Notes under the pieces: model-generated | Databases searched by the model: none | What the model saw: the letters and a program-made list of their open reading frames with translations, nothing else | What the model was told of the DNA's origin: nothing | Program-made: the position numbers and the translations under genes | Shown: positions 18,202 to 18,441 of the stretch, piece after piece | Layout: each line of letters starts with the position of its first letter | Position numbering within the stretch: the stretch's first letter is position 1 | Source of the DNA: Escherichia coli | Lineage (GTDB): Bacteria; Pseudomonadota; Gammaproteobacteria; Enterobacterales; Enterobacteriaceae | DNA: 64,000 nt | Assembly: GCF_965641715.1 (NCBI RefSeq) | Contig: NZ_OZ282453.1 | Reading direction: 5' to 3' (one strand)

Positions 18202-18441
18202 AACCGTGGCAGGAGGTCCGGACTGAAAAAACTGCTCAGGACATCATCGGCAGGGAACGCACTGCTAGTCTGTAAACTGAACCGACTGGGGCGCAGTATG
18301 TGGCATCTTGTCGTGCTGTTGGAGGAGCTGTGCGAACGTGGTATTAACTTTCGTGCTCTGGCCCAATCTATATTTGCCCAACAATGGGGGGACGAATGCT
18401 GTAAAAGTAAAACAATCTGCGATCTCAAAGTTATTGTGTGA
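18202..18441 (+). pseudogene. pinH: Remnant of a Pin/Hin/Gin-type serine DNA invertase (pinH-like); internal fragment only
   Basis: Frame translation [58 protein letters not shown]... closely matches the central region of serine invertases as recalled (…[51 protein letters not shown]…); no N-terminal catalytic Ser region and no C-terminal HTH. Confidence 0.6.

Follow-up and report, generated by a model that had tools for sequence, protein, structure and literature searches.

A short open frame between the genes ypjCB and ypjA of Escherichia coli reads like a piece of a DNA invertase, and the question raised by this locus is what the frame is, which part of an invertase it still holds and how it came to lie there. 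The locus was studied in a stretch of 64,000 nucleotides from E. coli contig NZ_OZ282453.1 (assembly GCF_965641715.1), which is called the window here. It is chromosomal, and its core genes match those of complete E. coli genomes at 99.5% identity. The gene order in this region is glaH, a ygaQ homologue, the tRNA gene ileY (15668-15743), ypjCB (16495-17868), a spacer, ypjA (18780-23378) and, on the minus strand, ssrA (23539-23901), and an Rfam scan of 12-26 kb returned the tRNA and the tmRNA only. Two of these genes are better preserved in the window than in K-12. The ygaQ alpha-amylase-family gene (12856-15108) is intact with 750 aa and is a pseudogene in K-12, and ypjCB is intact with 457 aa and is split into ypjB and ypjC in K-12.

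The frame in the spacer is on the plus strand, is open over 80 codons when the stop is counted, and has its first start codon, an ATG, at 18298. When the coordinates of K-12 pinH (b2648; NC_000913.3, 2783065..2783304) were mapped through alignment, they fell exactly on this interval, and the two features agree in position, extent and sequence. Thus, the frame is pinH, an already known and annotated pseudogene that is hardly mentioned in the literature. The NCBI pipeline labels the window equivalent of 18205-18372 as an incomplete "recombinase family protein" with the N- and C-terminus missing. A protein search with the 79-aa frame returned only E. coli fragments of 48-133 aa belonging to the same pseudogene, and the pin segment was found, at a coverage of at least 80%, in 3,041 of 5,426 complete E. 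coli genomes (~56%). The "PinH" of O157:H7 is a different gene, which belongs to prophage CP-933H and encodes an intact invertase of 22 kDa seen by proteomics (PMC3936929). The features of the spacer are collected in Table 1, and the evidence given below makes us highly confident that the DNA from 18214 to about 18394 was once an internal part of a serine DNA invertase gene of phage type, is now non-functional and is the same feature as K-12 pinH.

Table 1. Features in and around the pinH frame (positions in the window).
Feature	Position	Strand	Evidence or remark
Fossil attP arm of a Fels-2-like (P2-family) phage	17963..18036	+	Ends in a 13-nt core from the ssrA 3' end, TGGTGG-GCTGGC (18024-18036)
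Antisense ORF, 122 aa	18099..18467	-	Spans the leader, pin and IS3 relics; probable artefact
IS3 left terminal inverted repeat (IS3 nt 1-18)	18118..18135	+	17/18 bases in the window, 18/18 in the K-12 allele
Internal IS3 orfB fragment (IS3 nt ~543-618)	18136..18210	+	IS3 copies of many E. coli genomes match at 92%
80-codon frame	18202..18441	+	K-12 pinH (b2648) interval; bounds are those of the ORF, not of the homology
In-frame invertase segment of pinH (Pin aa 42-94)	18214..18372	+	pinE alignment, tblastn with PinE, Pfam, Gin structures
Frameshifted invertase tail (Pin aa ~95-102)	18373..18394	+	Gapped alignment reaching pinE nt 302-306
ypjA leader part of the frame	18396..18441	+	Start of the leader block 18392/18396-18750, duplicated at ymgJ-ycgI

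Extent of the invertase homology and the part of the enzyme that survives

The first-pass annotation had taken the 80-codon frame for a remnant of a Pin/Hin-family invertase, and the alignment to Pin, Hin and Gin-type invertases that it had proposed as a check established that the similarity is not spurious. The translated frame matched Pfam PF00239 (Resolvase) with an E value of 1.2e-9 and 38.9 bits against a cut-off of 23.3 bits, over positions 48-103 of the 145 in the profile. The Gin crystal structures 3uj3 and 4m6f matched the frame at residues 39-95 with an E value of 1.7e-12, whereas gamma-delta resolvase reached 2e-3 only. When K-12 PinE was used in tblastn against the window, its aa 38-94 were aligned here with an identity of 70% (E = 1e-19), and the 64 kb contained no second Pin-like segment. 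The fragment is therefore placed among the serine invertases by its catalytic-domain homology, being far closer to the invertases than to the resolvases.

At the nucleotide level, 18214-18360 aligned with pinE nt 124-270 at 84% identity, and the alignment could be extended with a gap from 18214 to ~18388/18394 against pinE nt 124 to ~302/306 at 79%. A frameshifting deletion of 4 nt lies near 18363, past which the shifted frame reads IYICPTMGGR where Pin has SIDTSTPMGR. The nucleotide identity of the relic is 79-86% with pinE of e14 as compared to 72% with the Fels-2 invertase. Judged from these alignments, the relic spans Pin codons ~41-102 and is closest to e14 pinE. The frame that had been reported is thus at the right place, but its 240 bp do not bound the homology. 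The in-frame invertase sequence accounts for about 53 of the 80 codons only; the first four codons (18202-18213) belong to an IS3 relic and the junction, and the final 15 (18396-18441) belong to the leader of ypjA and have no invertase origin. Three unrelated pieces, from IS3, pin and the ypjA leader, thus make up the frame, and the limits given in the annotation are those of an ORF.

The aligned sequences of PinE, Mu Gin, P1 Cin and the Fels-2 invertase share with the relic the K62-L63...L66-G67-R68-S69-M70 block and the ERGINFR block, and Asp64 is replaced by Asn in all alleles of the relic. Of the catalytic domain, the C-terminal half with the (D)RLGR motif survives. The earlier description of the fragment as the central dimerisation region of an invertase holds for the invertase and fails for the dimerisation. 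In Hin, the dimer contacts lie mainly in helix E, which begins after the hinge at Ser99, and the nucleophile is Ser10 (Chang and Johnson, 2015; PMC4513852). Neither is left in the relic: the homology begins at Pin codon ~41, downstream of the catalytic serine (Ser9 in Pin and Gin, Ser10 in Hin), and it stops at codon ~102 after being frameshifted from codon ~91, so that helix E with its Phe104-106 triad is missing. As the first-pass annotation had noted, the catalytic N-terminus (aa 1-40) and everything after aa ~102, including the C-terminal HTH, are absent, and no match to Pin aa 103-184 was found anywhere in the window.

The DNA sites on which an invertase would act were searched for as well. 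The degenerate 26-bp hix/gix/pix consensus had no match in the 64 kb with up to three mismatches, and neither the e14 pix arm derived from K-12 nor the AAACCNNGGTTT core was matched in the same 64 kb. No meaningful inverted repeats flank the relic, and thus the search for inverted-repeat recombination sites in the flanks that had been suggested earlier gave a negative answer, and the relic has no crossover sites with an invertible segment between them. The relic also lacks the 5' part of the gene in which the Fis-dependent enhancer lies, the first ~120 nt being missing. The cin gene of phage P1 has its annotated enhancer at nt 19-90, and its 3' end is overlapped by cixL; in Mu and e14 the crossover site is found just upstream of the invertase gene. 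The relic is without the regions that hold the enhancer and the crossover sites in P1, Mu and e14. Judged from the sequence that is left of the gene, it has no plausible present function. In addition, K-12 pinH is dispensable, since the reduced-genome strain DGF-298 is viable with a 33.8-kb deletion that includes it (PMC10652928).

Decay of the relic and other explanations of the frame

The variation of the relic was followed in six aligned alleles, those of the window, K-12, EC1515, elppa4, 50579417 and TUM20902, which differ by 12% at most within the pin relic. The junctions between IS3 and pin and between pin and the leader are identical in all six, which indicates that the mosaic arose once, in the ancestor of the ~56% of E. 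coli that carry it. These fixed junctions could mark the lineage of the genomes with this ypjA region. The sense frame is broken in half of the alleles: elppa4 has a TGA, 50579417 has lost 1 nt and TUM20902 has a TAG. The pN/pS ratio of the Pin frame was 1.4-2.6 when the window or the K-12 allele was compared with the divergent alleles; the two divergent alleles, when compared with each other, gave 0.65, and the counts were small throughout. The diversity of the relic, 5-9% with a mean of 7.5%, equals the background of the locus. The three different ways in which the frame is broken and the pN/pS values of mostly 1 or more together suggested that the relic is decaying neutrally. E. coli alleles at 88-97% identity that were taken up as candidates for longer versions of the fragment proved to be the same relic at the same locus.

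The ypjCB-ypjA locus as a whole (16500-21700, six alleles) is unusually polymorphic for E. coli, with a mean pairwise difference of 5-10% that is exceeded within some stretches of ypjCB, which points to ancient allelic lineages or to diversifying selection acting on the adhesin region.

The frame on the opposite strand at 18099-18467 had been set aside in the first-pass annotation as a probable antisense artefact. Were it instead a real and young protein-coding gene extending over the relics, the likeness to invertases on the plus strand would be incidental history. It stays open in five of the six alleles despite a divergence of ~10%, but it is broken in the sixth, and the rest of the window has many antisense ORFs of 150-200 aa. 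Its pN/pS of 0.43-0.72 would fit a constrained protein, but the ratio is based on about 10 synonymous changes, which are too few to tell it from 1. A pair of sigma-70-like hexamers is found with its end ~20 nt ahead of the ATG of this ORF; promoter-like sites numbered two as compared to the 2.6 expected in shuffled sequence, and no Shine-Dalgarno was seen ahead of the ATG on reading the sequence. Although gene callers predict this ORF in many assemblies, the product is named only "hypothetical protein" and is seen in E. coli only, it has no Pfam match, and RefSeq leaves it unannotated in the five full-length loci examined, with TUM20902 having only an overlapping hypothetical protein of 53 aa on the same strand. 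A genuine gene here is thus very improbable, and the ORF, which has no family match and spans three unrelated relics, is most likely an artefact.

The relic might also have been co-opted as a regulatory part upstream of ypjA, for example as a promoter, as a site bound by a protein or as a transcribed leader, since it precedes the ypjA start by 390-570 bp and its structure is unchanged in ~3,000 genomes. The conserved sequence lies elsewhere. Across the six alleles the blocks that are almost invariant are 18400-18500 and 18600-18800, whereas the relic is as polymorphic as the remaining locus. Furthermore, the paralogue of the leader at ymgJ-ycgI begins exactly at the edge of the relic and is without it, and the relic has no Rfam match. 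We consider such a role very unlikely, to about the same degree as a gene on the antisense strand. An origin from a transposon resolvase of the Tn3/gamma-delta type that arrived with the IS3 material, for which one could point to the inclusion of resolvases in PF00239 together with invertases and to the IS relic that adjoins the pin fragment, is hardly credible given the difference in E values between Gin and gamma-delta resolvase described above and the identity of 70% in amino acids and 79-86% in nucleotides to pinE and phage invertases, and to our knowledge IS3 encodes no resolvase. The reading as a decaying invertase relic was therefore retained. The pseudogene itself matters little; the check shows that its limits are stitched together and corrects which part of the enzyme survives.

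Phage arms, the ypjA unit and a proposed origin of the mosaic

The left neighbour of the pin relic is made of IS3 sequence. The IS3 end is joined directly to the internal IS3 fragment, which is separated from the pin homology by 3 bp and gives a weak match to Pfam HTH_21 in frame 3. An IS3 element would have both terminal repeats and intact orfA and orfB; what was found here is the left repeat of 18 nt and 75 bp of orfB. The relic has neither the right end nor the transposase and is therefore immobile.

The right neighbour is the leader of ypjA. The block 18392/18396-18750 has a counterpart with 89% identity in the ymgJ region, and the terminal 355 bp of ypjA (23034-23388) match the ycgI remnant adjoining ymgJ at 96.6%. 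The leader and the 3' end of ypjA both share sharp edges with the ymgJ-ycgI copy. The ymgJ-ycgI locus, on the strength of these alignments, is an internally deleted copy of a ~5-kb "ypjA unit" (18392/18396-23388), and the left edge of this unit is the right edge of the pin relic. The gene ycgV was also considered as the source of the paralogous leader; its alignment was negative, and the ymgJ-ycgI locus was found instead. Within the leader, 18596-18782 has a single variable site in 187 bp in the six alleles, which are otherwise 5-10% apart over the locus, and an ORF of 39 aa (18596-18715) is named "ATPase" or "hypothetical" by different sources. The conserved leader has no Rfam match, and its RNA fold stability is ordinary (z +0.7).

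The interval from ssrA to ileY is strewn with the remains of phages and IS elements, as is typical of tRNA/tmRNA integration hot spots. The attP arm listed in Table 1 matches, at 96% identity, the junction of a P2-like prophage with ssrA in E. coli EC5502, and it matches nt 9-83 of Fels-2, next to the annotated attP of that phage, at 93%. It lies 180 bp upstream of the pin fragment and 5.5 kb from the real ssrA. A hairpin was noticed inside this arm at 17989-18016. In addition, the ~150 bp that separate the stop of ypjA from the ssrA 3' end (23388-23545) are 82-88% identical to the att or "tmRNA pseudogene" regions of LLS, Ayreon and phiNP, which indicates that the present 3' flank of ssrA is a relic of a second phage family. 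The two distinct arms imply that at least two families of ssrA-integrating phages left arms here. The earlier suggestion that a phage-derived element once sat at this place thus gains support from the Fels-2-like arm with its ssrA core and from the second arm abutting ssrA, and these arms together with the IS3 relic speak for the phage origin of the fragment.

The following course of events is proposed. A temperate phage or island with a Pin-type invertase would have integrated at the 3' end of ssrA, and IS3 would next have inserted into the invertase-bearing element. Illegitimate deletions may then have fused IS3 nt ~618 to pin nt ~121 and removed IS3 nt 19-542, and pin nt ~306 may have been joined to the ypjA block at an ACG microhomology. 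The order of these events and the donor phage are inferred and not demonstrated. No intact precursor was found at this locus in the genomes examined, and a search for one in other species with YpjCB gave only two short and apparently contaminant contigs. Fels-2-like phages do carry a Pin-like invertase, which is 86% identical to PinE as a protein, but in these phages the invertase gene lies ~7-8 kb before the arm on the same strand, whereas in the window the pin relic comes after the arm and is closer in its nucleotides to e14 pinE. With the arm and pin in the opposite order, the two relics cannot derive from one simply integrated prophage unless a second integration or a rearrangement took place. 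The source of the pin fragment could be a second, later integrant or a rearrangement.

The shared edge of the pin relic and the ypjA unit allows a further reading, which we consider conceivable but rather unlikely. The ypjA autotransporter block may be a transposed or copied cassette that landed in a prophage invertase gene, and the ssrA-ileY region would then preserve in layers the traces of three or more successive integrations, those of a Fels-2-like phage, of an invertase-bearing element and of an LLS/phiNP-like phage. If this reading were true, the integrations in the ssrA-ileY region could be ordered in time.

Comparison with known elements

The relics of this locus can be set against four known systems. 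As compared to IS3, the left repeat (nt 1-18) and 75 bp of orfB are retained in unchanged orientation, whereas nt 19-542 and all of the element beyond nt ~618, with the right end, are deleted. The fossil attP arm resembles psaA of K-12, the attR of CP4-57, in that both are found downstream of the tmRNA gene and have a few bases copied from the 3' end of ssrA (13 nt here and 14 bp in psaA) next to the arm of a phage. They differ in that the present arm is of the Fels-2 (P2-family) type and not of CP4-57 type, and it lies beyond ypjA as seen from ssrA. In K-12, 22 kb of CP4-57 and the 14-bp psaA fragment stand between ypjA and ssrA. The strain of the window is without the CP4-57 prophage, and its ypjA is followed after 160 bp by ssrA.

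When compared with PinE of e14 (b1158) and the Gin, Cin, Hin and Fels-2 invertases, the relic conserves the RLGRS motif and the region of the Phe88 pocket, whereas about one third of the gene is left, with frameshifts and stops. As compared to K-12 pinH, the relic occupies the same locus between ypjA and ypjB/C and the same 240-bp interval with the same IS3 and leader junctions, its pin part is 99.5% identical to that of K-12 strains, and the differences are allelic only, as for example L12 in the window in place of V12 in K-12.
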